A stretch of DNA of 64,000 bases from Escherichia phage I29. Both the position numbers and the translations under genes were made by a program. Shown here piece after piece: positions 16,072 through 61,542 of the stretch. Numbering within the stretch: position 1 is the first letter of the stretch; the number at the start of each line of letters is the position of its first letter. Under the pieces are notes generated by a model, which was given only the letters and a program-made list of their open reading frames with translations, ran no database searches and was not told where the DNA came from. The DNA lies in sequence record ON286975, one strand, 5' to 3'.

Positions 16072-16114
16072 TTTATAGCATCCTTATTAGTCATGTTGTG
16101 CACCATATTTGTGT

Positions 16115-16143
16115 ATTTTACCATGATTATGGTGCATTGTCAA
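16115..16143 (-). promoter_or_regulatory. sigma70-like promoter (TTGACA-17-TAAAAT) upstream of chaperone/tape-measure genes
   Basis: Minus-strand reading TTGACAatgcaccataatcatggTAAAAT. Confidence 0.5.
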
Positions 16144-16180
16144 TTTAACCTTTCAAGCAATTCAAGAACGTGTGTCAAAA

Positions 16181-16212
16181 CCATAAAAGCAAAAAGCCCC
16201 ACCCTAAGGTGA
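16181..16212 (-). terminator. intrinsic terminator after tube-like gene
   Basis: Minus-strand AGCCTCACC-TTAG-GGTGGGGCT (9-bp stem) followed by TTTTTGCTTTT. Confidence 0.65.
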
Positions 16213-16233
16213 GGCTTATGCTAAAATGTGCCC

Positions 16234-25782: not shown

Positions 25783-25817
25783 AAACAGTATAACAAAATA
25801 GCCCTCGTCAGAGGGCT
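25783..25817 (-). terminator. hairpin with T-rich tail after terminase gene (weak terminator or attenuator)
   Basis: AGCCCTC-loop-GAGGGCT 7-bp stem; minus-strand downstream sequence ATTTTGTTATACTGTTTT. Confidence 0.4.
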
Positions 25818-25867
25818 AGTATCTCCAATTACTTTATTGTACCACATCTAATTAAGATTGGCAACAC

Positions 25868-28763: not shown

Positions 28764-28862
28764 GGTGCTAGGTGATGGAATCGAACCACCTATGTATTCA
28801 ACGACTACCTCGTCTATTTTCAGGATTAAAAATCCTCGCCCTTGCCAAAGGGCTTACCTAGC
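28764..28862 (-). ncRNA. atypical tRNA-like element (possible pseudo-tRNA or small stable RNA); anticodon not assignable
   Basis: 7/7 complementary acceptor ends GCTAGGT/ACCTAGC, D-arm GCCC-TTTGGCAA-GGGC and T-arm GGTGG-TTCGATT-CCATC, but the 46-nt middle has no canonical anticodon arm and contains a tight AGGATT-TTT-AATCCT hairpin; 3' end is ACC-T rather than CCA. Confidence 0.35.
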
Positions 28863-28960: not shown

Positions 28961-29051
28961 TGGCTGAGGGTAATGGAATCGAACCATCATCAAGTCATCC
29001 TCAACGGGACGGTTTTCAAGACCGCTTGAGCACCATTGCTCCCTACCCTCA
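28961..29051 (-). tRNA. tRNA-Ser (anticodon UGA), type II with long variable arm
   Basis: Hand-folded: acceptor TGAGGGT/ACCCTCA, anticodon stem GCGGT/ACCGT, loop CTTGAAA, long variable arm, T-arm GATGG-TTCGATT-CCATT, discriminator G, CCA. Confidence 0.7.
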
Positions 29052-29165
29052 TTTATAAACAATACTGATAATGACACTGATTTTCGAGCAGTTAGTGACT
29101 AGTATAAACGACGATAAATATCAATGCCATTATCTGTATGATTTATGCATTTAAAACTATAAATT

Positions 29166-29252
29166 TGGTGGGGAGTGGTGGAGTCGAACCACCCGAGTCG
29201 CAATGACAATAGATTTACAGTCTACACCGCTACCCCTACGGGATAACTCCCC
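29166..29252 (-). tRNA. tRNA-Tyr (anticodon GUA), type II
   Basis: Acceptor GGGGAGT/ACTCCCC, anticodon loop CTGTAAA and variable arm TGTCATTGCGACTCG closely resemble bacterial tRNA-Tyr; T-arm GGTGG-TTCGACT-CCACC, CCA. Confidence 0.8.
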
Positions 29253-29256
29253 AATT

Positions 29257-29331
29257 TGGCACCCCGTACTGGACTCGAACCAGTGTCAACGGCTTAGAAG
29301 GCCGCTGCTTTATCCACTAAGCTAACAGGGC
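29257..29331 (-). tRNA. tRNA-Arg (anticodon UCU)
   Basis: D-arm TTAGCTTAGTGGATAAAGC, anticodon stem-loop GCGGC-CTTCTAA-GCCGT, T-arm ACTGG-TTCGAGT-CCAGT, CCA; resembles bacterial tRNA-Arg(UCU). Confidence 0.75.
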
Positions 29332-29389
29332 ACTGGGTGGCTTTCTTTTACACCTTAGCCGCCAGAAAAGGTGGGAGACCATGTTTACA

Positions 29390-29419
29390 ATATTACACTG
29401 TTAAGCAAAGTTTGTCAAG
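29390..29419 (-). promoter_or_regulatory. sigma70-like promoter (TTGACA-18-TAATAT) upstream of tRNA cluster
   Basis: Minus-strand reading cTTGACAaactttgcttaacagtgTAATATtg, about 60 nt upstream of the first tRNA. Confidence 0.5.
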
Positions 29420-29427
29420 AAAATATT

Positions 29428-29766
29428 TTAGCTATTGCTAACAGGTTGTATTTCTGTGGTAAATGGCATAAAAGGTGCTGGTTTTTCAGCCTCTTCTACT
29501 ACCACCTCTTCCTCTTCACCAAACATCTCATCATATTCTTCCTGCATTCGGTCTGCCTTATCAAGAACATACTCTGCAATGCTTTGACGAATATTTTGTT
29601 TGGTTTTCGGGTCCAACATCAGCTCTCTTAAAACTTTGTGAGCTTCTGGAACCATCGCTATAAAAGATTCCTTCATATCAAGGATGTTCTTCTCTAGCTG
29701 AATGGCGTTGGACTCCTCTTTCAGAGGTCTGCCTCTACGGCGACGCTTTTTAGTTGTATCCGCCAT
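29428..29766 (-). CDS. small DNA-binding-like protein with AT-hook-type motif and acidic C-terminus
   Basis: ORF track 29428..29886; ATG at 29766 has a GGAGGAAAC RBS and sits downstream of the promoter at 29795..29823. N-terminus MADTTKKRRRRGRPLKEE contains an RGRP core; C-terminus is Glu-rich. Confidence 0.45.
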   Translation of the reverse strand: MADTTKKRRRRGRPLKEESNAIQLEKNILDMKESFIAMVPEAHKVLRELMLDPKTKQNIRQSIAEYVLDKADRMQEEYDEMFGEEEEVVVEEAEKPAPFMPFTTEIQPVSNS

Positions 29767-29794
29767 GTTTCCTCCATTATCACGTGATAGGTGG

Positions 29795-29823
29795 ATTTTA
29801 TCATAGCAAATACTGATTGTCAA
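29795..29823 (-). promoter_or_regulatory. sigma70-like promoter (TTGACA-17-TAAAAT)
   Basis: Minus-strand reading cTTGACAatcagtatttgctatgaTAAAATcc; same TTGACAAT...TAAAAT pattern as the promoter at 16115..16143. Confidence 0.55.
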
Positions 29824-30110
29824 GTTCGCCGCAGGGTGGTATTCCCTGCGACTTGTCCAGCGTCCTGGACCAGAAAGACCCAACAAGTGGGTTACCAGAG
29901 CCCATTACCGCACTTTGGCTCGACCTTATTACAGGTTGGCTGGGGTCACATCGTCATGTGCTGGCTGCCCCTACCATTTTAAGTGTGGTGCACTATCAAG
30001 CCCTCTAAGGGGAACTCAGCCTTCTCCGAACCCTGTTTCAAAGCATCCGGAGATAAAGCCATCAAATTCATCTTTAAATTGGATATTCATCATGATACAC
30101 GAAAACAACC

Positions 30111-30353
30111 TCATTGTAAAGCACAAATAAATAAAACATACTTAATTTGTTTGTTATCAGGCTCAGGGTAGAAGTAGAAGATCTTGCTATCACCGATCTG
30201 AACACCACCATCCCAACAGCATAGCCCATAACCCGTATTCATACAAGCTAAGTCGTTGGCAAAATCTATTGCATCATCCAGTGCACGAAATTCACCTTCA
30301 TCTTCTAAATAATCCTCATTCATGGAACGAAAAACGAGCTTAACCTTAAACAT
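30111..30353 (-). CDS. hypothetical protein
   Basis: 80-aa acidic ORF. Confidence 0.35.
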   Translation of the reverse strand: MFKVKLVFRSMNEDYLEDEGEFRALDDAIDFANDLACMNTGYGLCCWDGGVQIGDSKIFYFYPEPDNKQIKYVLFICALQ

Positions 30354-30429
30354 AGCATTACCTGTAGACCTCGTAAGTTAAAATTGCATCACATCATATT
30401 GCAGATCTTATCAGGTAACACTATTTTTG

Positions 30430-30639
30430 TCAACAGATTCCGGCCTTATCCTTCCTGTCTGCGTATTCTTTAATCGCAACCTCATCTGCATTAGTGACCA
30501 GGTCTTCAAAGTAACTCTCAAGCTCCTCGTCAATGTCAGGAGACCAGCTCTTTTTCCTGTCAGTGTGAATTGCAGACTTGTTGAACTTATTACAGTTCTT
30601 TGCTACCGGGTTGTTCATTAAGCGCTCCTCAGCGTTCAT
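30430..30639 (-). CDS. hypothetical protein
   Basis: 69-aa ORF overlapping the stop of the upstream gene. Confidence 0.3.
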   Translation of the reverse strand: MNAEERLMNNPVAKNCNKFNKSAIHTDRKKSWSPDIDEELESYFEDLVTNADEVAIKEYADRKDKAGIC

Positions 30640-31207
30640 AGTAAATCTTATTTAACATTACCTCATCCTTTGCAGAAAGGATATCAAGATATGCATCACC
30701 AAATCTTCCTGCAACAACCTCTGCATGATACATCACTTCGTTAACATCGTCAAGAGTGATAACCGGATGACCATATCTTTCTGAATATTGTCTCAGGGTG
30801 CGATGTAACGAGTCGTCATCATATGCAGACTTTTTAATATCACAAACACGACGAATAGCCTTGATGTCGAAAAAACCTGTGCGATACCACCCAAGAAAAA
30901 GGTTTCGTGCAGTGTCAACATCTACATTGATACCATCAAGAACCTTATCTACAAGATAGCTGTCATCCTTTGGACCAGCGTCCTTAGTGCGAATGTAGTT
31001 GCCATCTTTTCCAGGCGACATCTCCTTCTCATCCCCAACCTGCATGCCATCATTTGGCGGTGTTAGCCACTTATCCGGATGCTTACGATCACGAGCGTTA
31101 GAATGATTACGCTGGAAACCGGGCTTCCACTTGAAAGTTTTCTCCATCTGTTCTTCATTCTGATAACGTTTTGCAATCTTTTCACGGTCATCTTTGCGTG
31201 AACCCAT
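30629..31207 (-). CDS. hypothetical protein
   Basis: 192-aa ORF; first gene leftward of the iteron-containing intergenic region. Confidence 0.45.
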   Translation of the reverse strand: MGSRKDDREKIAKRYQNEEQMEKTFKWKPGFQRNHSNARDRKHPDKWLTPPNDGMQVGDEKEMSPGKDGNYIRTKDAGPKDDSYLVDKVLDGINVDVDTARNLFLGWYRTGFFDIKAIRRVCDIKKSAYDDDSLHRTLRQYSERYGHPVITLDDVNEVMYHAEVVAGRFGDAYLDILSAKDEVMLNKIYYER

Positions 31208-31711
31208 AGCTGCCTCCTCTTCAAGTTATAGAAAAACTAACTGTATCGCTTTGTAACGAGCTTTTCTATCAAACTGGTGCGATTGCATTACCTGGTATAG
31301 TTTATATAGCTGTGGAGCGATTTAGGGGCCTTCTTGTCAGTTTCCACACATAAACTTCATCCAAGCTCGCGCGGGAGACTCTCAACCGACTCCTTACGGC
31401 GCTGGCAAGCTTTCGTCGGTGGTCCACATCAGTGCTCGGCCTTTGGCCTGCGCTATCGCTTCGCTCCCACACATGTTAACAGACCTGTATGTATGAACTT
31501 CTGTTATTGTGTGCACCAAAGAGGCCCGGCATCTCGCCCCTCGTAGGCGAGTGCCAATGAAGGGCCGACACTGCCCATAGTAAGTAATAAATTTAAAACA
31601 TGGTACTTAGGATCTAGTATATTCTACATAAGTTAAGTATATGTACTTAGTACCATAAGTACTAGATCTTTTATTTTTTTATTATTTAGTTATTTTAGTT
31701 ATATTCTTTAT

Positions 31712-31820
31712 GTGTCCGTATCACGGACAGCTAGTGTCCGTATTACGGGCAGATGTGTCCGCGTGACGGACAGTAGTGTCCGTATCACGGACAGTTAATA
31801 GTATCCGTTCCATGGCGAAC
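31712..31820. repeat. array of four tandem ~21-bp direct repeats (iteron/operator-like), each with internal inverted repeat, plus one degenerate copy
   Basis: GTGTCCGTATCACGGACAG at 31712-31730 and 31776-31794 (identical), GTGTCCGTATTACGGGCAG at 31734-31752, GTGTCCGCGTGACGGACAG at 31755-31773, degenerate copy about 31800-31820; spacing 22/21/21 bp; each unit contains GTCCG...CGGAC. Confidence 0.8.
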
Positions 31821-31868
31821 ATAAAACATACGAATCCTTATAGTACAGATATTTAAGTTTTTACTGGT

Positions 31869-32219
31869 CTAACCAGTTGTTGACATCCGAATAACTTCTT
31901 CTGGTGGCAAAACTTTGGAAAATGTGCATCTTTTACCTCTCCCTTGTGTGGATGTTTCAACCACTCCTGCACATTCTAAAGTTTTAACGCACGCTGCTGC
32001 TTTTGTTTTCTTTATCCCAACATCTGCTGCAATTTTCCTTGTGCTTGGTGTGAAGCGTGAATTTCCTCCAAGCTTATACCAGTTGTGCAGGTAGCAGTAT
32101 ACGATCTTGTCATACAAGTCAAGAACAACAACCTCCCCAGTTGTGTCATTCAAAACTTTTGACATAGATAGTATTTCAAGGGGGACTTTAAGATATAGCA
32201 GCTTATCCCCATCTTTCAT
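31869..32219 (-). CDS. hypothetical protein, possible helix-turn-helix DNA-binding protein
   Basis: 116-aa ORF; segment STRKIAADVGIKKTKAAACVKTL has helix-turn-helix character (inference); 3' end abuts the iteron array. Confidence 0.35.
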   Translation of the reverse strand: MKDGDKLLYLKVPLEILSMSKVLNDTTGEVVVLDLYDKIVYCYLHNWYKLGGNSRFTPSTRKIAADVGIKKTKAAACVKTLECAGVVETSTQGRGKRCTFSKVLPPEEVIRMSTTG

Positions 32220-32266
32220 ATCTCCTGATTCTCCTTGTGTGGCAATTTTCTTTAAAATAGCAGGGA

Positions 32267-32821
32267 TTACTCCCTGCTGTCAATATCAAAACTCATTGCA
32301 ATACGGTATGCCTCTTCTAATGGTAAGAGTCTCCCCCACACATCCCAACCGACATCAAGCTGCCTGCCAAACAACTGTTGTGTGGTTCCGTGAGCATGAC
32401 CGAACAGTTGGACTGATCCGTGAGGCTTTCTGTTCCACTTTGCAAACTGGTAATGGCTCATACAGATCAAATTCTTGTTGTGGCGAAGCTCGTAATAATC
32501 TACAACCTCATGACCGAACTCTTTCATAATTCTGACAGTCGTCCTTGTGTCATGGTTGCCACGAACAAGAATAATATGTCCGTTCAACATATTTAGAATA
32601 TCTGGAAGTAAGTTGTTGATATTCTTATCATTAGTGCACGCAATATCTCCCAAGTGGAACACAGTGTCTGCAGGTGACACAACAGAGTTCCACTTGGCGA
32701 TGATTCCCGCATTCATACTGTCAAGATTGTGATCATACTGAGATCTGTGTTTTTGACATGAATCAAACTCCATGACCCGCTGGTGGAGAAAGTGTGTGTC
32801 GCTTGTTACAAAGTATTTCAT
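32267..32821 (-). CDS. calcineurin-like metallophosphoesterase (candidate RNA 2',3'-end phosphatase)
   Basis: ORF track 32267..32926; ATG at 32821 (MKYFVTSDTHF...) has a GAGGAA RBS. Motifs SDTHF, GDI, GNHD, GHAHG match binuclear metallophosphoesterases. Confidence 0.7.
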   Translation of the reverse strand: MKYFVTSDTHFLHQRVMEFDSCQKHRSQYDHNLDSMNAGIIAKWNSVVSPADTVFHLGDIACTNDKNINNLLPDILNMLNGHIILVRGNHDTRTTVRIMKEFGHEVVDYYELRHNKNLICMSHYQFAKWNRKPHGSVQLFGHAHGTTQQLFGRQLDVGWDVWGRLLPLEEAYRIAMSFDIDSRE

Positions 32822-32828
32822 ACATTCC

Positions 32829-33239
32829 TCATTTAAGTTTAATGCAGTTTTTAAGCTGGCGTTCCATACGATCCACAACCTTGTCTGGAACATCATGAAT
32901 GCTTTTATTACCGTGGCGGTTTTCAACCACGATCACGGTATAACTATACCCATGACTGATTGCCATGTCAACATATTCCTGCACATGTTTTTCTTTTGTA
33001 AACGTATTACTTACCACGATACGGTCGTATCCCATACGCATCATATCTTCTACGTTATCTTTGCACCATTTTGCTGCGAGTGTTACTTTACTTGCATCCC
33101 AGTTGTAATTGCCGTCATCGTCATACCAGAACATGTCGTTCTCAAAATGTGGATACAGACCCTCTAAAGATAGCGCATTTGCCAGTGTTGATTTGCCAGA
33201 CCCTGGTAGACCACGCACGATATATAGCATTTTAGACAT
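32829..33239 (-). CDS. P-loop kinase, polynucleotide kinase-like
   Basis: ORF track 32829..33296; ATG at 33239 (MSKMLYIVRGLPGSGKST...) has a GGAGGG RBS; Walker A GLPGSGKST at the N-terminus as in polynucleotide 5'-kinase domains; adjacent to phosphoesterase and RNA ligase-like genes. Confidence 0.55.
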   Translation of the reverse strand: MSKMLYIVRGLPGSGKSTLANALSLEGLYPHFENDMFWYDDDGNYNWDASKVTLAAKWCKDNVEDMMRMGYDRIVVSNTFTKEKHVQEYVDMAISHGYSYTVIVVENRHGNKSIHDVPDKVVDRMERQLKNCIKLK

Positions 33240-33339
33240 AGTGACCCTCCGTTTTAATTTCAACGGTAGTATACCTGACTGTTTTGTTAATTTCAAGTGT
33301 TGACACTAGGTTATTTGTGTGGCAGGATAGACTGACAAA

Positions 33340-34275
33340 ATGACAAATGAGGAACGTATGATGAAGTATTTTAATGCAGACGACCTAGTTGACAAAGGTC
33401 TTGTAACCAGTAGGTATTACCCAGATCTCGGGTTAAAGATCTATAAATATGCTAGAAAAGTATTTTACAACAATTTATGGCATTTGTCCCCTCGTTTACT
33501 GGAGTGCCGAGGCATTGTTGTAGGTAATGAAGGAAATGTTGTGGCATGGCCCTTCACAAAAGTGTTTAACTTGGGAGAAAACTCCACCAACCTGCCTGAC
33601 AATAAGCTTGTGACTGCGGTAGAGAAAAAGAACGGATTCCTTGGTGTGGTATCATCTCATAAAGGTGACCTATTGTTCTCAACAACCGGGTCTCTTGATT
33701 CTCCATATTGTAACCTTGCAAAGGAAACCATCCAAGAGCAATGTGGTAATTTAGATCTTATCAAGAAGGTTATGGGCAATGAAAACATGACATTCATGTT
33801 TGAAATTTGTCACCCTTCAGATCCGCATATTGTTCAAGAAGACCATGGCGCATATTTGATAGGTTGCAGATATAATGATTCTGGAATAATGCTACCAGAA
33901 GCAGCTTTAGATGGGATTGCCAAATACCTTGGTGCAAAACGTCCTCACACTGTGCGTGAAATCCCGTTCAGCTATGCAAAAGAATTAGCTGCAGAAACAA
34001 GGGGCGAAGGGTATATGATCCGTAAGCCTTACTACCCTTATGACCTGCAGCTGAAGATCAAGTCTCCATACTATTTGGCACGGAAGGCCGTAATGAGGGG
34101 TAAAGCTTGGAAGATTTGGGATGATGATATCTTTAAACGTATTGACGAAGAGTTTTATGGCATGGTAAACTTCATTCGTAGCAATTACACAGAAGATGTG
34201 TGGAACTGCCTCCTGGAGCAGGAACGCCGTGAGATACTTGATTGCTATTTTCACAACGAGGACTATATGCAATGA
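33340..34275 (+). CDS. RNA ligase-like nucleotidyltransferase
   Basis: 311 aa; covalent nucleotidyltransferase motif I-like VEKKNGFLG (KxNG); distinct from the DNA ligase at 36746; divergent from the kinase/phosphatase pair. Confidence 0.5.
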   Translation: MTNEERMMKYFNADDLVDKGLVTSRYYPDLGLKIYKYARKVFYNNLWHLSPRLLECRGIVVGNEGNVVAWPFTKVFNLGENSTNLPDNKLVTAVEKKNGFLGVVSSHKGDLLFSTTGSLDSPYCNLAKETIQEQCGNLDLIKKVMGNENMTFMFEICHPSDPHIVQEDHGAYLIGCRYNDSGIMLPEAALDGIAKYLGAKRPHTVREIPFSYAKELAAETRGEGYMIRKPYYPYDLQLKIKSPYYLARKAVMRGKAWKIWDDDIFKRIDEEFYGMVNFIRSNYTEDVWNCLLEQERREILDCYFHNEDYMQ

Positions 34276-34622
34276 AGAAGTTGATTGTGTGGCTAGATGA
34301 CTTGAGAGATCCGTCAAATTACGGAATCCAAGATGCTCTTTGGCTGAAGAACTCTTCTGAGTTCATGGATTTTATTAACGATAATAGAAAGCTCTACAGG
34401 CGCGTTTCTGAGTGGCATTTTGACAATGATCTAGGTGAAGTGCTTGAAGGGTACGACTGCTTCTCTGCGCTAGAGGAGAAACTTGTATTCGGAAAGCCAC
34501 CACTTATTGACAACGTGATTATTTTCGTGCATACTTCTAATCCATCGGCAGCTCGTAAATTTATGCTTGCTGCTGACTCATTCAAGAAGTTTGGAATAGA
34601 GATTAAACAAAACATCTACTGA
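34272..34622 (+). CDS. hypothetical protein, receiver (CheY-fold)-like residue pattern
   Basis: ORF track 34242..34622; ATG at 34272 overlaps the RNA ligase stop (ATGA). Pattern LIVWLDD ... HFDNDLG ... IFVHTSNP ... AARKF recalls the acidic/Thr/Lys positions of receiver domains (inference). Confidence 0.4.
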   Translation: MKKLIVWLDDLRDPSNYGIQDALWLKNSSEFMDFINDNRKLYRRVSEWHFDNDLGEVLEGYDCFSALEEKLVFGKPPLIDNVIIFVHTSNPSAARKFMLAADSFKKFGIEIKQNIY

Positions 34623-36746: not shown

Positions 36747-38029
36747 TGCATCAGATCAAAACAACACTGTACGCACTGAATAAAGATGGCAGCTACCAAC
36801 AGTGGAAAGTATTCACGGATGGTGATAAGGTTATCGTAGAGTTTGGCAAGCTTGATGGTAAACTGCAGTACAAAGAGACGGTATGCACACCTAAGAACGT
36901 AGGTCGTGCCAACGAGACTACAGCTGAGCAACAGGCCGAGCTTGAGGCTATCAGCAAGTGGGAAAAACAAGTCCGTCTGGGGTATGTTGAAAACATGGAA
37001 GATTGCGAGCAGGGTGTTGATCTTTTACCCATGCTGGTGCATGACTACCTGAAGCGTGGCAAGGCACTTAAATTACCTTGCTGGATCTTGCGTAAGTTAG
37101 ATGGCCTTCGTCTGCTTGTTGTTTTCCAAAATGGTGAGCCTAAATTTATTTCCCGTGGTAATAAGTCCTACCCTATTCAAGGAAAGCTTTTAGAGCAACT
37201 TCGTTCTTTCCATTCTACCACTGGGATTAAACAACTTGATGGGGAACTATACATTCATGGTCTTCCTTTGCAGAAAATAGTGTCTCTTGCTAAACGGTGG
37301 CGCACACAGGAAGAGATTCAGGCCGAGATCGATAAAGACTATGAGGCAGATAAAAAACGCCGTCATGCAGCAATTAAGGCAGGTTTATCAACATACAAAA
37401 ACTTCAACAAGGTAGATATTCCTGTCGATGTTGAGCCTGTTCGTGATGATTTGCGTTACGGTGGGTACTGTAGCTACGATCTGGAGTATCACATTTTTGA
37501 TATTCCTAGCGACAAGGTGTGGTGGGATCCAGAAACAGAGTCTGGACGCTGCAAGGATCTTATGGATGCAGAGGATACCGTTACCACTCTGATGCTTGAC
37601 CATATCAAGGTTGTTGACGCAGAGCTTGCGTACACAGTTGATCATTGCGAAGAATCTGTTGGTATATTCATGTCCGAAGGATATGAAGGTACTATCATGC
37701 GTAATTTCTGCGGTAAATACGAGTACGGTCAGCGAACATCTGAAGCATTGAAATGGAAAAAGTTCAACGACGCAGAGGTGAAAGTTATTGACGTTGAGAA
37801 AGATAAGAATGATGAAGGTGTTCTTATCTGTGTTGACAAGGAAGGTGTTATTGTTAAAATGAAGATGAAAGGCACGCACGAGGAGCGTAGCTATGACAGG
37901 ATGCAGGAAATGATCGGCAAGTTTGTCACCTTCAAATATCAATCAAGGACAGAAGACAACAACTACCAATTCCCTGTCGGTATCTGCGTCCGAAATGTTG
38001 ACCCAGACACTTGGGAGGTTCTGGAATGA
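36746..38029 (+). CDS. ATP-dependent DNA ligase
   Basis: 427 aa; motif I KLDGLR (KxDGxR) at about residue 118. Confidence 0.65.
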   Translation: MHQIKTTLYALNKDGSYQQWKVFTDGDKVIVEFGKLDGKLQYKETVCTPKNVGRANETTAEQQAELEAISKWEKQVRLGYVENMEDCEQGVDLLPMLVHDYLKRGKALKLPCWILRKLDGLRLLVVFQNGEPKFISRGNKSYPIQGKLLEQLRSFHSTTGIKQLDGELYIHGLPLQKIVSLAKRWRTQEEIQAEIDKDYEADKKRRHAAIKAGLSTYKNFNKVDIPVDVEPVRDDLRYGGYCSYDLEYHIFDIPSDKVWWDPETESGRCKDLMDAEDTVTTLMLDHIKVVDAELAYTVDHCEESVGIFMSEGYEGTIMRNFCGKYEYGQRTSEALKWKKFNDAEVKVIDVEKDKNDEGVLICVDKEGVIVKMKMKGTHEERSYDRMQEMIGKFVTFKYQSRTEDNNYQFPVGICVRNVDPDTWEVLE

Positions 38030-38624: not shown

Positions 38625-38687
38625 TCATTGACATAACCACACGGACGTGGTATTGTTGCCTCATAGAATGTTCGAAAGGGTTTAACC

Positions 38688-39368: not shown

Positions 39369-39651
39369 GAAACCTGCAAAAGAGAAATTTGATAAGACAG
39401 CTTTTGTATTCGATACACCTCTGGACGATATCATCAGAGGTATGCAAGCCTTGTATCGGAAGTCTGAATCTGAGCAGTTGTCGGAATCAGAGCTTTACTG
39501 GTTGGGTTGGTGGGAGCTTAATCTACCTAAAGCTGAAAGCTCTGATCTAAAAACCGTTAAAACGTGTGCCCAAGAAAATGCTGCACTTGGAATTTACCAC
39601 AAAAGAAAAAGATCAACAAAAAGCTCTCCAAGAAAGACTAAAAAGTCTTGA
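39358..39651 (+). CDS. hypothetical protein
   Basis: 97-aa ORF, basic C-terminus. Confidence 0.35.
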   Translation: MMAKKPAKEKFDKTAFVFDTPLDDIIRGMQALYRKSESEQLSESELYWLGWWELNLPKAESSDLKTVKTCAQENAALGIYHKRKRSTKSSPRKTKKS

Positions 39652-45940: not shown

Positions 45941-46527
45941 TCGGAATTGATGTAGATCTGACACTGGTAGATTCAGGAACAGCATGGTGGGAGTGGTTGG
46001 AGCGTTTGTATGGTCCAGCCAGTAAGACAGTCGCTAAACCTTCTAATGGGTTAATGTATTACGATCTGTCAAAGTATTGGCCTGATCGCCCCAAAGAAAA
46101 CATCATAGGGCCTTTTGATTTCTGGAGTGACCCGTTCCTTTACGACTTTCTTAAGCCTGAAGAGGGGGCTATTGAGGTTATGAAAGATTTGGTGGCTCGT
46201 GGTCACAAGCTTGCGTTTATCTCGGTATGCAAGAAAGGTCACCTTGCATCTAAATCAAGGTTCTTAAAGCGTTGGACCAGTGATTTTATGGATCTGGACG
46301 ATCACACCCAGGGCCACGGATTCTACGCCACACATTTCAAAGGGAATGTGGCTGTAGATGTTATAATTGACGACAGGCATGAATACCTGAACCAATTCGC
46401 TTCACGACCTGAAGTTATTAAAATCCTAAAAGATACGCCTTATGAGCAATTCGAGGAGTTAAAGGTCAGTATTGACTATACCGCCAATAGCTGGTATAAA
46501 ATAGGAAAGTTTTTAGAAGGTATTTGA
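45934..46527 (+). CDS. HAD-superfamily phosphatase, 5'(3')-deoxyribonucleotidase-like
   Basis: 197 aa; motif I GIDVDLTLVDS (DxDxT) and later VIIDDR. Confidence 0.55.
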   Translation: MLIGIDVDLTLVDSGTAWWEWLERLYGPASKTVAKPSNGLMYYDLSKYWPDRPKENIIGPFDFWSDPFLYDFLKPEEGAIEVMKDLVARGHKLAFISVCKKGHLASKSRFLKRWTSDFMDLDDHTQGHGFYATHFKGNVAVDVIIDDRHEYLNQFASRPEVIKILKDTPYEQFEELKVSIDYTANSWYKIGKFLEGI

Positions 46528-47741: not shown

Positions 47742-47770
47742 TTGACTAATAGTATCAGATAATCTATAAT
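47742..47770 (+). promoter_or_regulatory. sigma70-like promoter (TTGACT-17-TATAAT)
   Basis: TTGACT 47742-47747, 17-bp spacer, TATAAT 47765-47770; followed by GGCTCAC-TTTGTTA-GTGAGCC hairpin at 47774-47794. Confidence 0.6.
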
Positions 47771-54380: not shown

Positions 54381-54419
54381 GAGAGCAAGGATGCTCTCAT
54401 TTTTTTTTTTTTTGTTTTT
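54381..54419 (+). terminator. strong intrinsic terminator after nrdD
   Basis: GAGAGCA-AGGA-TGCTCTC 7-bp stem followed by a run of about 20 T. Confidence 0.75.
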
Positions 54420-54420
54420 A

Positions 54421-54449
54421 TTGACTTCTATTCCTCTTTTCTATAGTAT
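54421..54449 (+). promoter_or_regulatory. sigma70-like promoter (TTGACT-17-TAGTAT)
   Basis: TTGACT 54421-54426, TAGTAT 54444-54449, upstream of 54488 gene. Confidence 0.4.
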
Positions 54450-54487: not shown

Positions 54488-55420
54488 ATGAGAAGACTAA
54501 CAACCGAAGAGTTTATAGAAAAAGCTCAGACTATACATGGTGACAAATATGATTACTTCAAAGTGGAGTATAAAAACAACAAGACACCTGTGTGTATAAT
54601 TTGTCCTGAGCACGGTGAGTTCTGGCAAACCCCTGTGGCACATGCTTTCAAGAATCATGGTTGTCCAAGGTGTGGTGGGTCAGCGAAAAAGAACACTGAA
54701 GAGTTCATAAAAGAGGCTATGGCTGTTCATGGGGACAAGTACGATTACTCATTAGTCAAATATGCGAACATGAGAACGCCTGTAAAAATTGTTTGCCCTG
54801 AACACGGTGTGTTTGAACAATACCCTGAAAACCACTTATACCAAAGAAACGGCTGCCCAGAGTGCTATGACTTAAGACGTGGGCAAAGTCAAGCGTTAAC
54901 CCATAAGGAGCATGCTGCAATTATCCACAAAGCCAACCCAGACATAGAAATATTAGAGAAAATTGCCAATGATAACACAAAAGTGCAATGTAGGTGCAAA
55001 ATTTGTGGGTATAAGTGGTCTGCTAAACCTAATAACCTAAAAAGTGGTCGTGGCTGCTGTAAATGCGCACAAAATGGATTCTTATCTCATGAGTACGGTA
55101 AACTCTACATTATGGTTGATGACTTAGAAGTGCCAACACTTATGAAAATCGGTGTATGCGTTAAAATGCACAGGAGGAAAAATGAGGTGCTTAACAGTGC
55201 TCGTAAATCTGGCGCAGGTGTCCACACTCTTCACGTAGTAAAAACATGGAGCGGATCAACTCAAAACATGGTAGATTTAGAAAAATCTGTGCATAAGGCC
55301 TTGAGCAAGTATAAAATAAACTTTCCTGTAAAATTTGACGGTAGCACTGAGTTTTTCTACTACAGGCCTGAAGTGTTTGACACGGTAGAAGAGGTATACA
55401 AGAAGATTTGTGGTAAATGA
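54488..55420 (+). CDS. homing-endonuclease-like protein (repeated Zn-finger modules plus T5orf172/GIY-YIG-like C-terminal domain)
   Basis: 310 aa; three repeats of HGDKYDY..V.Y.N..TPV.I.CPEHG.F.Q.P..H....GCP.C; C-terminal GKLYIMVDD...KIGVCVK...VHTLHVV...GSTEFF. Inserted between nrdD and nrdG with own terminator/promoter. Confidence 0.45.
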   Translation: MRRLTTEEFIEKAQTIHGDKYDYFKVEYKNNKTPVCIICPEHGEFWQTPVAHAFKNHGCPRCGGSAKKNTEEFIKEAMAVHGDKYDYSLVKYANMRTPVKIVCPEHGVFEQYPENHLYQRNGCPECYDLRRGQSQALTHKEHAAIIHKANPDIEILEKIANDNTKVQCRCKICGYKWSAKPNNLKSGRGCCKCAQNGFLSHEYGKLYIMVDDLEVPTLMKIGVCVKMHRRKNEVLNSARKSGAGVHTLHVVKTWSGSTQNMVDLEKSVHKALSKYKINFPVKFDGSTEFFYYRPEVFDTVEEVYKKICGK

Positions 55421-55472
55421 TTGTAGAAAGATATGCATATCTTAAACATGCTATTAACTAAGGAGGTGCAGT

Positions 55473-55589
55473 ATGTCATCAGGTATTTATAAAATTTGCA
55501 AGTGCGGCTGTAGTTGCAATCTTCGTTGGTGCAAGGCACTAGACGATTTTATTTGGCATTGCCCTAAATGTGATGCGGAGTATCTATGA
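55473..55589 (+). CDS. 38-aa Cys-rich micro-protein (zinc-ribbon-like), translationally coupled to nrdG
   Basis: Own translation MSSGIYKICKCGCSCNLRWCKALDDFIWHCPKCDAEYL; AAGGAGGT RBS 5 nt upstream; stop TGA overlaps nrdG ATG (ATGA). Below the ORF-track size cutoff. Confidence 0.45.
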   Translation: MSSGIYKICKCGCSCNLRWCKALDDFIWHCPKCDAEYL

Positions 55590-56059
55590 ACATTGTCGGA
55601 TACACAGAAATATCTTACACCGAAGGGCCAGGTATTAGAACTGCCTTGTGGGTATCTGGGTGCCCACACGCTTGCCCTGGTTGCTTTAATCAGGCATTTT
55701 GGTCAAAAGATAAGGGGAGGGAGTTCACTGAAGAAGACTTGCAAAAAATCTTGTCAGATTTAGATAACCCGTCTGTGTGCGGTATCTCTCTGCTGGGTGG
55801 AGAACCCTTAGCATACTATAATGAGCCAGATATTATTAGCCTGATGGAGAAAATTAAGGAAAAATTTGGTGACAAGAAAACTATTCTTGTATATACTGGG
55901 TTCACATTTGACCATATCTCTAGTGATGTTCTTAAACTGGCTGATATCATCATTGACGGTAAGTATGTAAAAGATTTACCAACCAAGAAACCGTTCCGAG
56001 GCAGTGATAACCAAAGAATGTTTAAAAAAGTATCAGGCGGTTGGGTTCAGGTAGACTAG
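55586..56059 (+). CDS. nrdG: anaerobic ribonucleotide reductase activating protein (radical SAM)
   Basis: 157 aa; radical-SAM cysteine motif CPHACPGC near N-terminus. Confidence 0.85.
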   Translation: MNIVGYTEISYTEGPGIRTALWVSGCPHACPGCFNQAFWSKDKGREFTEEDLQKILSDLDNPSVCGISLLGGEPLAYYNEPDIISLMEKIKEKFGDKKTILVYTGFTFDHISSDVLKLADIIIDGKYVKDLPTKKPFRGSDNQRMFKKVSGGWVQVD

Positions 56060-56062
56060 TTG

Positions 56063-56092
56063 TTGACAAAGCTTTGTTTAGATAGGTATAAT
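56063..56092 (+). promoter_or_regulatory. sigma70-like promoter (TTGACA-18-TATAAT)
   Basis: gTTGACAaagctttgtttagataggTATAATtatcg. Confidence 0.6.
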
Positions 56093-56123
56093 TATCGTAA
56101 AATGAAAGTAGAGGAGGTGCCAA

Positions 56124-56237
56124 ATGGCTAAAAAAGCCTTGAAGAAGGCGTACAAGAAAGAGATTGCGCTTGAGCTTAAGAAAAAACACAAGCGTGAAAA
56201 GAAACATCATGGAGATGAAGAGGGGGTGCAACAGTGA
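56124..56237 (+). CDS. 37-aa Lys-rich basic micro-protein (hypothetical)
   Basis: Own translation MAKKALKKAYKKEIALELKKKHKREKKHHGDEEGVQQ; GAGGAGGTG RBS; stop overlaps GTG start of next ORF. Confidence 0.3.
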   Translation: MAKKALKKAYKKEIALELKKKHKREKKHHGDEEGVQQ

Positions 56238-56584
56238 CACAAGAACGTATCGATTTGGCTAATAAGTTTGTAGATCTCATTTTGCCACGGTTAGTTACTC
56301 AACATGCAGATGCTATTTCTACTAATCTTGATGGCTTACGCCTAATGCTGAATCGCACAGATGACCCTCGTATTCGGGCTGATTTAGAAGCCTCTGCCAA
56401 CAAACTGGAAAAGTTCTTGCAAGTAGACACGCAAGAAGCCTTGCACAAGATTATGGTGGAAGGTTTCTCTAAAGAATTTACCATTAAAGAGCTTAAGGAG
56501 CTGATCCACCAAGAAGAGATGAATATCCGAGTTCAGGCTGTTGCAAGCAGCATGGAAGCGGCTATTGAAAAACTGTTGCAGTAA
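56234..56584 (+). CDS. hypothetical protein
   Basis: 116-aa ORF (GTG start). Confidence 0.4.
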   Translation: MTQERIDLANKFVDLILPRLVTQHADAISTNLDGLRLMLNRTDDPRIRADLEASANKLEKFLQVDTQEALHKIMVEGFSKEFTIKELKELIHQEEMNIRVQAVASSMEAAIEKLLQ

Positions 56585-56622
56585 AAGTACTTGGCACATC
56601 TCAATCTGAAAGGAGTCCCAAC

Positions 56623-57411
56623 ATGGGTCGAGCTAAAGAAACAAAACGCATGCGTGATGAAGCTAGAGAGGCTCGCAAATCTGATCGCTTGCGTAAGGCT
56701 GCTGAGAAATTTGCTGACGAAAGAGAGCACACCGCTCCAGCTCTCCGACCAATGAATAAGAAGCAGCAAAAGTATCTTGATTATCTAGGGTCACGTAAGA
56801 TTATTATTGTAAACGGTGTGTTTGGATCCGGTAAGACATTTATGGCATCTGCATATGCAGGTGATCTTCTGCGTAAGAACGAGATTGATAAGATCATTGT
56901 TGCACGTCCTTACGTCCAGACAGGAAAGACTTCAGGATTTAAACCCGGAAATGCAATTCAGAAACTGTGGCCCTATCTTCGAAGCATGATGGACACGATT
57001 TGTCGTCGTGTTGGCAAAGGTGCTTTTGCCGCAATGCTGGGAGACGGTCAGAACAGTCGTATCGAGATTTGTGAGGTTGAAAGCATTCGTGGTCGTAGTT
57101 TCGATGAGCGATGCTTTGTCCTGATTGACGAGGCACAGCAAACTAACCCTGAAGAAATGTTGTCAATTATCACAAGGATCTCTGATCAAGCCACCCTTGT
57201 AATTATGGGTGATAATAGCCAACGTGACATCCCTGGTAAATCTGGCCTTGCGTGGGTGACGGATTTCTTTACTCGTCATCCAGATCCTGAGGTTGGAATG
57301 ATCAGCTTTGATAGTCCAGACGATGTCGTTCGTTCCGGGTTGGGCCGTCAGATCGCACTCAATCTTATTGAGGATCGTGCAAATCATATTTGGACCCCTG
57401 TTTCCGAGTAA
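56623..57411 (+). CDS. phoH: PhoH-like ATPase
   Basis: 262 aa; Walker A VNGVFGSGKTF and conserved PhoH core (LIDEAQQ, IMGDNSQRD). Confidence 0.8.
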   Translation: MGRAKETKRMRDEAREARKSDRLRKAAEKFADEREHTAPALRPMNKKQQKYLDYLGSRKIIIVNGVFGSGKTFMASAYAGDLLRKNEIDKIIVARPYVQTGKTSGFKPGNAIQKLWPYLRSMMDTICRRVGKGAFAAMLGDGQNSRIEICEVESIRGRSFDERCFVLIDEAQQTNPEEMLSIITRISDQATLVIMGDNSQRDIPGKSGLAWVTDFFTRHPDPEVGMISFDSPDDVVRSGLGRQIALNLIEDRANHIWTPVSE

Positions 57412-57416
57412 TACAG

Positions 57417-57437
57417 AAGGGTGGTTATTCCACCCTT
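57417..57437 (+). terminator. hairpin after phoH (weak terminator)
   Basis: AAGGGTGG-TTATT-CCACCCTT 8-bp stem; downstream sequence is A-rich, so efficiency is doubtful. Confidence 0.35.
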
Positions 57438-57455
57438 AAATATCTAAAACAGTTG

Positions 57456-57484
57456 TTGACAAATAGGTAAGCTTTAGATATTAT
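57456..57484 (+). promoter_or_regulatory. sigma70-like promoter (TTGACA-17-TATTAT)
   Basis: gTTGACAaataggtaagctttagaTATTATcgg; shares the GTTGTTGACAAA -35 context with the promoter at 56063. Confidence 0.55.
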
Positions 57485-57512
57485 TATCGGACAAAACAGA
57501 GAGAAGGACAGT

Positions 57513-57824
57513 ATGGCTACAATACAAGAGAAACTGAATAAAATATACTGCCTGTTTGTCTATAACGGCGAGACAATTTTGGCAAATAAAGGATCCAAGA
57601 ATGTGTGGACCAAGGACAGCGGTGGTAATATAATTAACTTAGCGTTGCTACGTGAGCGCCGACACAGATTCTTTATCGAGTCTCGAATTATTGAAAGCAG
57701 CACTTGCTACAGAACAGGCGATAAAGTAATTGTTGACAATGATACGTGGTATGTGGTAGATTGGCAATCATTGAGTTGTGATGCTTCTGACAATCGTAAG
57801 TACTCCATAGTGATTGCTAAATAA
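57513..57824 (+). CDS. hypothetical protein
   Basis: 103-aa ORF. Confidence 0.4.
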   Translation: MATIQEKLNKIYCLFVYNGETILANKGSKNVWTKDSGGNIINLALLRERRHRFFIESRIIESSTCYRTGDKVIVDNDTWYVVDWQSLSCDASDNRKYSIVIAK

Positions 57825-57884
57825 AGGTAAATGTGAATCAGGTTTAAATAAATAGCTTTCAACTTCCAATATTAAGGATTTCTC

Positions 57885-58934
57885 ATGAATTTAACACCTC
57901 GCAGCACCATGGTACACGGCATGAAAGAAAAACAGAACGGTTTCGAACCTATGAGTAATAAAATGTTTGGTATGCCGGGCGGTATCATGGAAACATACAG
58001 CTACCCAACACCTGTTGTTGACCACGTTCTTTATATCGACGATTTGGAGGACCTGCAGGATCATATGTCTCGTCTGCAGACGATCCGTATGGCTCAGCCG
58101 GAAGAAAGCATTCGTGTGATCATCAATAGCCCTGGTGGTTGCGTGCACATTGCAATGGCTTATCTGCAGGCATTCCGCGAGTCTCAGGCAAGCGTTGTTG
58201 CACATGCTGAAGGGATGTGCTGCTCTGCTGGAACAATCTTATGGCTTGGTTGCAAAGAACGTACTGTGGCTCCGGACACAGAATTTATGTTCCACTACTA
58301 TCAAGGTGGCACTTATGGTAACGGTGTTAACATGAATACTCAGGTCAGCTACTGGAAAAAACGTTTTGAACACCTGATCGAAAAATACTACGGTGGGGTG
58401 CTGACAGAAGATGAGATCGCATCCATCACAGCTGGTGGCGAAGTGTGGTTGGACGGAGAAGAGTTGGCAGCACGCACTGGAGCTATTATTCTGGATGAAG
58501 GCAACATACAACGCATCCAGAACGGACAAAAACCGAAAAAGCTTCTGGCAAAAGGTGATGAAGAAGGCGTGTTAGGTGAAGCAGGTCTTCCGGAGATTCA
58601 TCAGTGCACATCTTTAGATGAGTTAGTTCATGCTGTTGAATCTGCAAAAGCGGGTGGTTCGAAAGGTGATGTTCACACTGTGTTCCTGAATCTGCAGATG
58701 GAAAGTGGCGAGACCGTCCGAATTGCCCTGGGTGAGATTACTTCAGAAGATCTGCAGAGATTCTCTGTCGTTGAACTTCAGGATATTCTGTCTCAATTGA
58801 AGACTACTCTGAACGGCGGTGAAGAGGTTAAGGTGAAAGATAAGACTCGCAAGCGTCTTGTGGACAATATTATTAAAACAGCAAAAGAGCTCAATGAAAA
58901 AATCCTGGGTGCAGGAATTGTCGAAGAAGCTTAA
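57885..58934 (+). CDS. ClpP-family (S14-like) serine protease homolog
   Basis: 349 aa; ClpP-like blocks VIINSPGG, AEGMCCSAGTIL (Ser) and FMFHYYQGG (His); long C-terminal extension; true start may be a downstream Met. Confidence 0.7.
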   Translation: MNLTPRSTMVHGMKEKQNGFEPMSNKMFGMPGGIMETYSYPTPVVDHVLYIDDLEDLQDHMSRLQTIRMAQPEESIRVIINSPGGCVHIAMAYLQAFRESQASVVAHAEGMCCSAGTILWLGCKERTVAPDTEFMFHYYQGGTYGNGVNMNTQVSYWKKRFEHLIEKYYGGVLTEDEIASITAGGEVWLDGEELAARTGAIILDEGNIQRIQNGQKPKKLLAKGDEEGVLGEAGLPEIHQCTSLDELVHAVESAKAGGSKGDVHTVFLNLQMESGETVRIALGEITSEDLQRFSVVELQDILSQLKTTLNGGEEVKVKDKTRKRLVDNIIKTAKELNEKILGAGIVEEA

Positions 58935-58947
58935 ACATTAATTCTAA

Positions 58948-58968
58948 AGCCCTCTTCGGAGGGCTTTT
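58948..58968 (+). terminator. intrinsic terminator after ClpP-like gene
   Basis: AGCCCTC-TTCG-GAGGGCT followed by TTTT. Confidence 0.6.
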
Positions 58969-58985
58969 ATGATCTGGAGATTTGC

Positions 58986-59519
58986 ATGACTTGTGCTAGA
59001 AAACCTGATGAACAACGTAACGCCTACGATGAGTATGTGACACCGGAGTGGTGTGCAGAAGGGCTGTATGACCTTATTCCGTTCCCAGAAGACTGGACCT
59101 ACTTAGAGCCTTGCAGGAATAGTGCCTCAGGTGTGTTCTACTCCCGTATGCCGTTAGGATCTGCATGGGGAGAAATCCAAGAAGGTGTTGACTATCTGAA
59201 TACAGAATACAACCATGTTGACTGTATTATCACCAACCCGCCGTACAGCCTGGCTCGTGAGTTTGTGGACAAGGCGTTGAAAGATGCCGACGTAGTTATT
59301 ATGCTTTTGCGTCTTAATTTTCTGGAAAGCAAGGCCAGATTTGAATGGTGGCTTGATAATGCACCTACCACTGTGATCACAATATCTAAGCGTCCGTCAT
59401 TCCAATCTAATGGTAGAACGGATGGGCAGGCATATGCATATTTTGTGTGGGATAAGAAAAACCGTTTAGACTTGCCGCCATTTATGTGGTTGGCACCCCC
59501 AGAGGTAGACCTGAAATGA
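58986..59519 (+). CDS. small DNA amino-methyltransferase (NPPY type)
   Basis: 177 aa; LEPCRNSASG (motif I-like) and ITNPPYS (motif IV). Confidence 0.55.
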   Translation: MTCARKPDEQRNAYDEYVTPEWCAEGLYDLIPFPEDWTYLEPCRNSASGVFYSRMPLGSAWGEIQEGVDYLNTEYNHVDCIITNPPYSLAREFVDKALKDADVVIMLLRLNFLESKARFEWWLDNAPTTVITISKRPSFQSNGRTDGQAYAYFVWDKKNRLDLPPFMWLAPPEVDLK

Positions 59520-59800
59520 AAATGAGTGCTAAGGACAAATTACACCAGTTAGCGCTAAAACGTCCTGTAACGCTCCCTGACGAGCTTAACTCCATTTATG
59601 ATGCGATTGTAGGGGAGATACAAAATAAAGCGTTAGCAGGCTTTCTGGGATGCGGATTTTCGATAAATCTACCGTCGCATCTCTCAGATTACTTCCCGCA
59701 CATTGTTGGAGATTTAAGGGCAGGAGGTTTGCAGGTAGATGTTGTCGGCATCTCTCCAGAGAAAAATAACACGGTTGCCTACTTGACAGTAACCTGGTAG
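59516..59800 (+). CDS. hypothetical protein
   Basis: ORF track 59486..59800; ATG at 59516 overlaps the methyltransferase stop (ATGA). Confidence 0.35.
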   Translation: MKMSAKDKLHQLALKRPVTLPDELNSIYDAIVGEIQNKALAGFLGCGFSINLPSHLSDYFPHIVGDLRAGGLQVDVVGISPEKNNTVAYLTVTW

Positions 59801-59807
59801 TTGTGTA

Positions 59808-60074
59808 TTGTTGTTCTCAACAAGGGGGTCATTTATGTACAAGTCATTCTCAATTTACTCAAGACAGGCGAAACACTACACAGAGATCCTGATTACTCAG
59901 AAAAAATCTGTAGAAGGTGAGTGGGAATATCACCATAAAATGTTGCGTCCAGATTGGGTTTTTGATAGACTTATTGCCATGATCCCTCTTGGGGAAGTAT
60001 ACCCTCTGACAGCCCATCGCGATGCTTGGGATTTAATTGATTACATAGATTCATTTAAGGAGCCTAGATTATGA
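59808..60074 (+). CDS. hypothetical protein
   Basis: 88-aa ORF. Confidence 0.35.
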   Translation: MLFSTRGSFMYKSFSIYSRQAKHYTEILITQKKSVEGEWEYHHKMLRPDWVFDRLIAMIPLGEVYPLTAHRDAWDLIDYIDSFKEPRL

Positions 60075-60745: not shown

Positions 60746-61275
60746 CAGGTATGCTTCTGATTAACTGGGAAGACCTCTATGGGGACAAAGACCCTGTTGC
60801 GTTTGTTGATCGTAGGTGGAGATACACTGAAGAACAACTGGCGGCAAAAAATTTAACTGCAAAACGCAGAAAGATCATCCAGTGCAAGTACAAATACGCA
60901 CAGTTTGCTGCAAAAGTGTCTCCACAAATCGAGAGCTTTGTGCTTAAATTGTATGACGAGTACCTCAAATTCAAATTGGATTTTGTACAGGTGTACCGTG
61001 CACAGGTACGACCAGATACCAACATATGTAGATGGAAGGTTGTTTGTGACGGTAAAGATTTGCCGCTCAGCTTGACAATTGAGTGGCGTTATGGGTATCA
61101 TGAGTGTGGTCTGTATGATATTTGGGATGTCATTGTAGATCCTGCTAAGCATCTGAACACAGAGGAGCTGGAATATATCAATAAGGTTATTCTCGATATG
61201 TTTTTCAGCTACACCCATGAAAACTCTGAGAAAGAACGGGATAATTTTCTTGACACCCTCAGCTGCCATTTGTAG
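60742..61275 (+). CDS. hypothetical protein
   Basis: 177-aa ORF. Confidence 0.4.
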   Translation: MTGMLLINWEDLYGDKDPVAFVDRRWRYTEEQLAAKNLTAKRRKIIQCKYKYAQFAAKVSPQIESFVLKLYDEYLKFKLDFVQVYRAQVRPDTNICRWKVVCDGKDLPLSLTIEWRYGYHECGLYDIWDVIVDPAKHLNTEELEYINKVILDMFFSYTHENSEKERDNFLDTLSCHL

Positions 61276-61305
61276 TATACAATTTAACCTACAAAGGGAG
61301 GACCA

Positions 61306-61542
61306 ATGAGTATAAATGTTGTGCTAATAGGTTACCTGGTAATGTCCGTTATAACAGCGGTATTCTTGACAGGTGTATGCATCGTGTCCAGACGAAGGGT
61401 GAAGTTTGATGATTTTATCACCATCATCACTGCTGCACCTTTTTGGCCTGTTGTTATCTTCATCGTGATAATGTGCCTGGTTGATTACTACAAGAATATC
61501 CGTAAGGAGAAAAAGGAGGGTAGGGATGGAGACCGCACCTAA
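61306..61542 (+). CDS. small membrane protein with two predicted TM segments (holin-like topology)
   Basis: 78 aa; two hydrophobic stretches (VLIGYLVMSVITAVFLTGVCIV and ITAAPFWPVVIFIVIMCLV) and a charged C-terminus. Confidence 0.4.
   Translation: MSINVVLIGYLVMSVITAVFLTGVCIVSRRRVKFDDFITIITAAPFWPVVIFIVIMCLVDYYKNIRKEKKEGRDGDRT

Follow-up and report, generated by a model that had tools for sequence, protein, structure and literature searches.

The promoters of rV5, the type phage of Vequintavirus, were predicted by Kropinski et al. (2013, Virol J 10:76, PMC3606486), who reported 33 sigma70-type promoters and 20 terminators and concluded that promoters resembling the E. coli consensus were distributed over the rV5 genome. 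In Certrevirus phages CB7, CR3, CR8 and CR9, a putative early promoter was described as AAAA(N3-4)TGTTGAC(N17-19)TATAAT, and no phage RNA polymerase gene was reported for CB7 (Buttimer et al. 2020, PMC7344957). We analysed a stretch of 64,000 nucleotides (nt) of Escherichia phage I29 (ON286975), hereafter the window, in which an initial annotation had pointed to eight recurrent promoter-like sites. Two of these, at 56063 and 57456 on the + strand, surround a phoH-like gene. Our results suggested, with a probability of about 0.85, that the sites are ordinary host sigma70-class promoters of Vequintavirus.

All eight sites were found where the initial annotation had placed them, with near-consensus hexamers and spacers of 17-18 nt. 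They are named below as in rV5, and each distance given is the one between the last base of the -10 hexamer and the start codon or tRNA that follows. P118 (56063-56092, + strand) read TTGACA-18-TATAAT and matched the consensus at 12/12 positions. It was located directly after the nrdG stop codon and 31 nt from the ATG of open reading frame (ORF) 118. P121 (57456-57484, + strand) read AAAA-N4-TGTTGACA-17-TATTAT with TTGACA as the -35 hexamer (11/12), and the ORF121 ATG followed after 28 nt. P107 (47742-47770, + strand, TTGACT-17-TATAAT, 11/12) was located after thyA, upstream of ORF107/108 and the nrd operon. P093 (39648-39677, + strand, TTGACA-18-TGaTATTAT, 11/12) had an extended -10 and lay 33 nt from the ORF93 ATG. 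On the - strand, P074 (29795-29823, TTGACA-17-TGaTAAAAT, 11/12) also had an extended -10, approximately 28 nt from the ORF74 ATG. P051 (16115-16143, - strand, TTGACA-17-TGgTAAAAT, 11/12, extended -10) was placed 44 nt before the tail assembly chaperone gene, with a tail-tube-side structural gene on its other side; the initial annotation had put this site inside the late tail operon. The site said to drive the tRNAs, P(tRNA) (29390-29418, - strand, TTGACA-17-TAATAT, 10/12), was likewise found 58 nt upstream of tRNA-Arg, the first of a cluster of seven tRNAs. The last one was a weak promoter-like site at 54421-54449 (+ strand, TTGACT-17-TAGTAT, 9/12), 38 nt from the ATG of a homing-endonuclease-like ORF.

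The -35 hexamer was TTGACA in six of the eight sites and TTGACT in two. The -10 hexamers were TATAAT, TAAAAT and TATTAT (two each), TAATAT and TAGTAT, and A2 and T6 were kept in 8/8. Six sites had a spacer of 17 bp, and the other two had one of 18 bp. The TG of an extended -10 was present in 3/8 (16115, 29795 and 39648) and absent at 29390 (in the 17-bp spacer reading), 47742, 54421, 56063 and 57456, which made it a feature of a subset, not of the class. All eight sites were oriented with the downstream gene and ended 23-58 nt before a ribosome-binding site and start codon or before tRNA-Arg.

The window was closely related to known phages. Megablast of 55000-59000 and 29000-34500 matched many Vequintavirus genomes along the entire query at 97-99% identity, among them Shigella phage CM1, rV5_ev146 and phages of the BASEL collection. 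These matches place the window in Vequintavirus, among the rV5-like myoviruses of E. coli, and it corresponded to approximately 32.1-96.8 kb of rV5 (DQ832317). Seven of the eight sites were listed in Table S4 of the rV5 paper (PMC3606486) as P051, P(tRNA), P074, P093, P107, P118 and P121, and the GenBank record DQ832317 annotated them as 'Sigma70-type promoter'. Both hexamers were identical to rV5 at all seven common sites, and 1-6 spacer substitutions were observed at three of them (39648, 56063 and 57456). The weak site at 54421 was an addition, absent from the rV5 promoter list.

The shared -35 context was also confirmed. AGTTGTTGACAAA was present at both 56063 and 57456, and TTGACAAT...TAAAAT was present at both 16115 and 29795, as had been reported. 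Position by position, the promoters were A-rich from -10 to -4, counted back from the hexamer, and favoured T at -2; T did not occur at -1, and the hexamer tended to be followed by A. TGTTGAC occurred 22 times on the sense strand, compared with 6.6 ± 2.3 expected. G at -1 was found in 12 of 26 rV5 promoters and 5 of 14 window promoters, so that the TG/A-tract context was a preference and not a rule. The 13-mer shared by P118 and P121 is not exceptional, as other promoter pairs also had runs of 12-13 nt in common, and it reflects a context preference of the whole family.

TTGACW-N16-19-TAWAAT had six matches compared with 0.26 expected. Chance was further examined using 200 dinucleotide-preserving shuffles, in which the two transcription arms were shuffled separately. 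Matches of at least 11/12 to TTGACA-N16-18-TATAAT were observed 10 times on the sense strand compared with 0.72 expected, which was approximately 14-fold, and 0 times on the antisense strand compared with 0.58. At 10/12, the sense strand had 27 matches (8.7 ± 2.7 expected) and the antisense strand had 10 (7.7 expected). Non-coding DNA had 2.5 matches per kb and coding DNA had 0.42, a difference of approximately six-fold. The gene map was built from maximal ORFs, by which non-coding DNA was under-called and some 'coding' matches were really intergenic; the non-coding enrichment is thus a lower bound. Matches in coding sequence also exceeded a codon-permutation control, with 21 compared to 7.3 and 4 compared to 0.36. 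For 11 of the 25 coding matches the next gene began no more than 120 nt away, which indicated that many were embedded in the 3' end of the preceding gene.

Conservation was compared between hexamers and spacers for 14 credible promoters of the window against rV5. Hexamers had changed at 2/168 positions and spacers at 20/240 (Fisher p = 0.0013), which suggested purifying selection on the promoters. At 39648 there were 0 hexamer and 6 spacer changes, and at 56063 there were 0 and 4. More distant relatives were collected by a PhoH search of IMG/VR (four loci), three further IMG/VR scans, and tblastn against GenBank phages, from which six regions were retrieved. P118 was aligned in nine sequences of three genera, including the window, rV5, IMG/VR contigs, Seunavirus GAP31 and Mydovirus KpS8; three of the IMG/VR contigs were from a clade with 84% PhoH identity. 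In this alignment TTGACA was invariant and the -10 kept T-A---T, and the spacer differed, with a mean column identity of 55%. For P121, TGTTGACAA was invariant in seven aligned sequences, TTGACA was again invariant, and the spacer was variable. The mean column identity of the P118 and P121 alignments was 55-63%. The positions were also kept. P118 in the other genera occupied the gap before the ORF118 homologue, where the upstream gene was glutaredoxin and not nrdG, and P121 remained directly upstream of the ORF121 homologue even when an extra gene was inserted after phoH. In addition, P093 was conserved in the relative L107, and TTGACA-17-TATCTT was found exactly at the thyA stop codon, the position of P107, in five Seunavirus/Mydovirus-like contigs.

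The motif, the strand bias, the non-coding enrichment, the placement, the hexamer conservation, the retention of positions in other genera and the published rV5 and Certrevirus analyses were all consistent with the earlier proposal that the phage relies on host sigma70. From sequence we infer that E-sigma70 binds, where transcripts start and when the promoters are used. Several observations weighed against assigning the sites to this class. The searchable literature yielded no transcript 5'-end, in vitro transcription or reporter data for Vequintavirinae, and a 2023 paper on O177 phages used a promoter predictor only. P051 was restricted to Vequintavirus proper, with 10 more distant relatives lacking it, and it also carried TGGTAAAATA, a proposed late motif that is discussed below, so that its class was ambiguous. 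The site at 54421 matched at 9/12 only, a level at which 53 matches were found compared with a shuffle expectation of 40.9 in 20 kb. The strong intragenic matches at 37833, 61072 and 62916 were possibly fortuitous, and the one at 37833 was not conserved in rV5.

One rival explanation is that the sites are non-functional products of chance, base composition or codon usage in an AT-rich genome. The small excess of 9/12 matches over shuffles (41 compared to 31.5 and 54 compared to 39.3, besides the comparison given above) would agree with it, as would several 10-11/12 matches deep within genes. However, it does not account for the high-stringency matches, which were enriched on the sense strand only, for the excess over permuted codons, for the concentration of matches in non-coding DNA or for hexamers that were more conserved than spacers. 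Promoter positions were also kept across genera despite unrelated spacer sequence, and we regard chance as the most remote of the explanations considered. A different origin can be imagined for the pair around phoH. P118 and P121 are identical over a run of 13 nt and have AGCTTT / TAGATA in their spacers and TTATCG past the -10 in common, and the gene content near phoH varies between genera, so that the two promoters could be recent duplicates flanking a mobile, moron-like phoH cassette, which would explain the common AGTTGTTGACAAA and TTATCG. However, comparable runs occurred in other pairs, of 13 positions for P107 and P121 (one mismatch, located in the hexamer) and of 12 for PtRNA and the site at 61250. 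In the divergent clade L005-L007 the resemblance of P118 to P121 was no greater than for other pairs. P121 followed ORF121 and not phoH when a gene was inserted between them, and P118 followed the ORF118 homologue in three genera. The duplicated module was rejected on the equally long runs in other pairs and the resemblance lost in L005-L007, and recent duplication is very improbable.

A further question was raised by the late genes. A separate late motif, TggTAaAAtA (TGGTAAAATA), was proposed for rV5, in which P051 was listed in both the sigma70 and the late class (PMC3606486). In the window, several late gene starts carried TG(G/A)TA(A/C)AAT(A) in the preceding gaps (1981, 12884, 16123, 19645 and 25844, - strand). 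The TGGTAAAATA sites formed a set separate from the eight sites, and 16115 alone overlapped both. Some of the eight sites, 16115 and 29795 (TGnTAAAAT) in particular, could belong to or overlap a class under phage control, whose timing would require a phage factor or a modified host polymerase. TGGTAAAAT occurred five times on the sense strand compared with 0.6 expected and was absent from the antisense strand, and intergenic copies were located before late genes at 1981, 16123 and 19645, with the related TGGTACAAT and TGATACAAT at 25844 and 12884. The 28-kb structural module contained one full -35/-10 promoter (16115), and about 16 were found in the 36 kb of the tRNA/small-ORF region and the nucleotide-metabolism arm on the + strand. 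Because the structural module has only one, sigma70 -35/-10 promoters are not an obvious explanation of late transcription. A Srd-like anti-sigma candidate was also noted in rV5 (PMC3606486). However, the late sites inspected by eye had weak -35-like hexamers (TTGCGT, TTGCTT, TTGCCA and TTGTAA) exactly 17 nt upstream, which indicated that they fit the ordinary extended -10 sigma70 class, with their timing unexplained. No factor is known for a phage-controlled class, and the relatives retrieved for comparison of the late motif were near-identical ones only. We consider such a class improbable.

The sites also differed from the promoters that T4 uses after its early phase. The MotA box, (a/t)(a/t)(a/t)TGCTTtA centred at -30, replaces the -35 in T4 middle promoters. 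No T4-type middle promoter was found among the eight sites, all of which had canonical TTGAC(A/T) at -35. For the same reason none was a T4-type late promoter, which has TATAAATA at -10 and no -35 and depends on gp55, gp33 and gp45. In addition, the rV5 analysis found no homologue of gp33, gp45 or gp55, which T4 uses for late transcription (PMC3606486), and this also argues against a phage-controlled class. In a broader scheme, host sigma70 would serve the entire temporal programme through promoters of two grades: full -35/-10 for early/middle genes and tRNAs, and a weak -35 with an extended -10 (TGTGGTAAAATA) for late structural genes. The switch would be made by a phage factor, replication coupling or an anti-sigma decoy, and P051 would be a hybrid gained in Vequintavirus only. 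This scheme is doubtful, although somewhat less so than a phage-controlled class. The sites touched on how late genes could be switched without a phage sigma factor or polymerase, and they did not answer it.

If the sites are sigma70 promoters, the host RNA polymerase holoenzyme would read the -35 TTGACA and the TATAAT-like -10, 17-18 bp apart. The A-rich stretch just before the -35 at many sites resembles the proximal subsite of an UP element. Transcription would start approximately 7 nt past the -10, and the leaders would be short, at 16-50 nt; those of P118 and P121 were unstructured. P118 would start a transcript of ORF118, ORF119 and phoH, and P121 would start a transcript of ORF121 and clpP. 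Elsewhere in the window the same promoter class precedes the tRNA cluster, the small-ORF run, the nrd operon and, in a single case, the gene of the tail assembly chaperone.

The genes in these two putative units were as follows on the + strand. The cassette between P118 and P121 (56124-57411) began with ORF118 (56124-56237), the first gene after P118, which encoded 37 very lysine-rich amino acids (MAKKALKKAYKKEIALELKKKHKREKKHHGDEEGVQQ) and had no Pfam match. Its homologue kept the position after P118 in three genera. ORF119 (56234-56584) was next, and the cassette ended with the gene of a PhoH-like ATPase (56623-57411; Pfam PhoH, E = 7e-47). Downstream of P121, ORF121 (57513-57824) and a ClpP-like protease gene (57885-58934) formed a unit (57513-58934).

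The initial annotation had also proposed that terminator-promoter pairs reset transcription between cassettes. A pair was defined by a GC-rich hairpin and a U-tract within approximately 60 nt upstream of the -35, and this proposal held in part. Canonical pairs were found at 16115 and 54421, a weak one at 47742 and none at the other five sites. The terminator before P051 (16194-16217, - strand), which is t052 of rV5, was intrinsic, with a 10-bp stem and a U-run, and was located 51 nt upstream of the promoter. At 54421, the preceding terminator was at 54381-54398 with a T-run (+ strand). The terminator before 47742 was weak, with a 6-bp stem. Hairpins without a U-tract preceded 57456 and 29795. 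One of these, after phoH (57417-57437, + strand), had an 8-bp stem (free energy -13.7 kcal/mol, z -3.35); it was not a canonical intrinsic terminator and was not reported by the terminator scan. Upstream of 29390, 39648 and 56063, the terminator scan and hairpin check found nothing.

The pair at 54381-54449 preceded an inserted ORF. The homing-endonuclease-like ORF (54488-55420, + strand, 310 amino acids) contained DUF723, CapR/treble-clef zinc finger and T5orf172 domains. It was inserted between nrdD and nrdG and carried its own terminator and weak promoter. In contrast, rV5 has no comparable ORF annotated at that position.

All Vequintavirinae examined (the window and L017-L026) had a hairpin in the gap that separates the tail tube gene from the tail assembly chaperone gene (16072-16233). 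In distant genera the short hairpin of this gap read GCCACAnnGAnGTGGCCTTT, and P051 was added after the hairpin only in Vequintavirus proper. An 8-bp inverted repeat, GCACCATA...TATGGTGC (16100-16136, - strand), bracketed the P051 -10. It is probably not an operator, because it was imperfect in the close relatives L014 and L015. A further order of elements was observed at 25836-25864 (- strand), where a promoter-like TTGCCA-17-TGgTACAAT, the 'late' P064 of rV5, was located upstream of an intrinsic terminator (25799-25818). With the promoter followed by the terminator and then the next gene, a transcript from this site would run straight into the terminator.

A stem-loop was also found after P107 (47773-47795, + strand). 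It had 9 bp, a free energy of -15.2 kcal/mol and z of -4.5. It followed the -10 directly, so that it was at or overlapping the expected P107 transcript start, upstream of ORF107 and the nrd operon. In relatives of other genera (L027, L029, L030 and L032-L036) a promoter was located at or near the thyA stop codon and was followed by a GC-rich hairpin of unrelated sequence without a U-tract. The hairpin after the nrd-operon promoter, conserved in structure and not in sequence, may regulate or stabilise the transcript. The stem may act as a 5' stabiliser, an attenuator or a DNA-level element. An NrdR operator at the inverted repeat after P107 was considered and is unlikely: by eye the repeat did not fit the NrdR-box consensus, and the GC-rich hairpins of the relatives, being unrelated in sequence, favoured an RNA or DNA structure over an operator recognised by its sequence.

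Additional predicted promoters were located in the window. On the - strand these were P075 of rV5 (30405-30433, TTGACA-17-TGaTAAGAT), 'P76' of the rV5 GenBank record (32254-32283, TTGACA-18-TATTTT), which was upstream of a helix-turn-helix regulator gene, 'P80' of the same record (32943-32971, TTGACA-17-TATAGT, 11/12), and P081 of rV5 (33268-33296, TTGAAA-17-TATACT), which was in the divergent switch region. On the + strand, P090 of rV5 (38628-38656) read TTGACA-17-TGgTATTGT and P105 of rV5 (46472-46500) read TTGACT-17-TGgTATAAA. Two more + strand candidates were absent from Table S4 of rV5. The one at 59783-59811 (TTGACA-17-TATTGT) was 23 nt from an ATG and was conserved in rV5 and, with spacer turnover, in L004 and L007. 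The one at 61250-61278 (TTGACA-17-TAGTAT) was 27 nt from the ATG at 61306 and had 0 hexamer and 5 spacer changes compared with rV5. In relatives the hexamers of both were intact or nearly so and the spacers had changed. They are candidates, conserved among the sequences compared, for addition to the published rV5 promoter list.

In the window as a whole, genes from position 1 to approximately 33,300 were on the - strand, in the order tail, head, terminase, the seven tRNAs and small ORFs. From approximately 33,340 to the end they were on the + strand and included RNA ligase, DNA ligase, exonuclease, thyA, nrd, phoH, clpP and small ORFs. The GC skew switched sign where the gene strand switched (~33,300). 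An Rfam scan of the whole window matched tRNAs alone. Between tRNA-Thr and tRNA-Ser, ARAGORN gave a further tRNA candidate (28764-28862, - strand, 99 nt) with a 4-base anticodon (atcc). This candidate also passed the Rfam tRNA gathering score (35.5 bits), and the rV5 annotation was blank there. This tRNA could contain an intron, resemble a frameshift suppressor or be degenerate. Among database records, approximately 19 UNVERIFIED GenBank entries (MG0656xx) labelled 'Campylobacter phage' were 97-99% identical to the window phage, and their host labels look unreliable.

The promoters of this window can be compared with those of the classical coliphages. Lambda PL/PR and the early promoters of T5, T7 and T4 have near-consensus hexamers and a 17-18 bp spacer and are read by the unmodified host holoenzyme. 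The string (G)TGTTGAC is likewise present in lambda PL/PR and in the trp/tac promoters. The classical promoters were mapped experimentally, and those of the window are predictions. T4 later moves to MotA/AsiA middle promoters and then to gp55 late promoters. The finding leaves the understanding of phage transcription unchanged. It carries the published rV5 promoter map over to this isolate, and it could help in the annotation or engineering of Vequintavirus phages for therapy, such as in picking native promoters or insertion points. Compared with the 2013 prediction, the strand bias, the constraint on hexamers relative to spacers and the conservation of positions across genera were new. Certrevirus belongs to the same subfamily, Vequintavirinae, and differs in genus and host. 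Its consensus corresponded to the shared -35 context seen here, with TG before TTGAC and an upstream A-tract, and P121 fitted it exactly as AAAAcagtTGTTGAC. The promoter finding was thus correct and ordinary, and this type of promoter is already known from both the rV5 genus and the subfamily.

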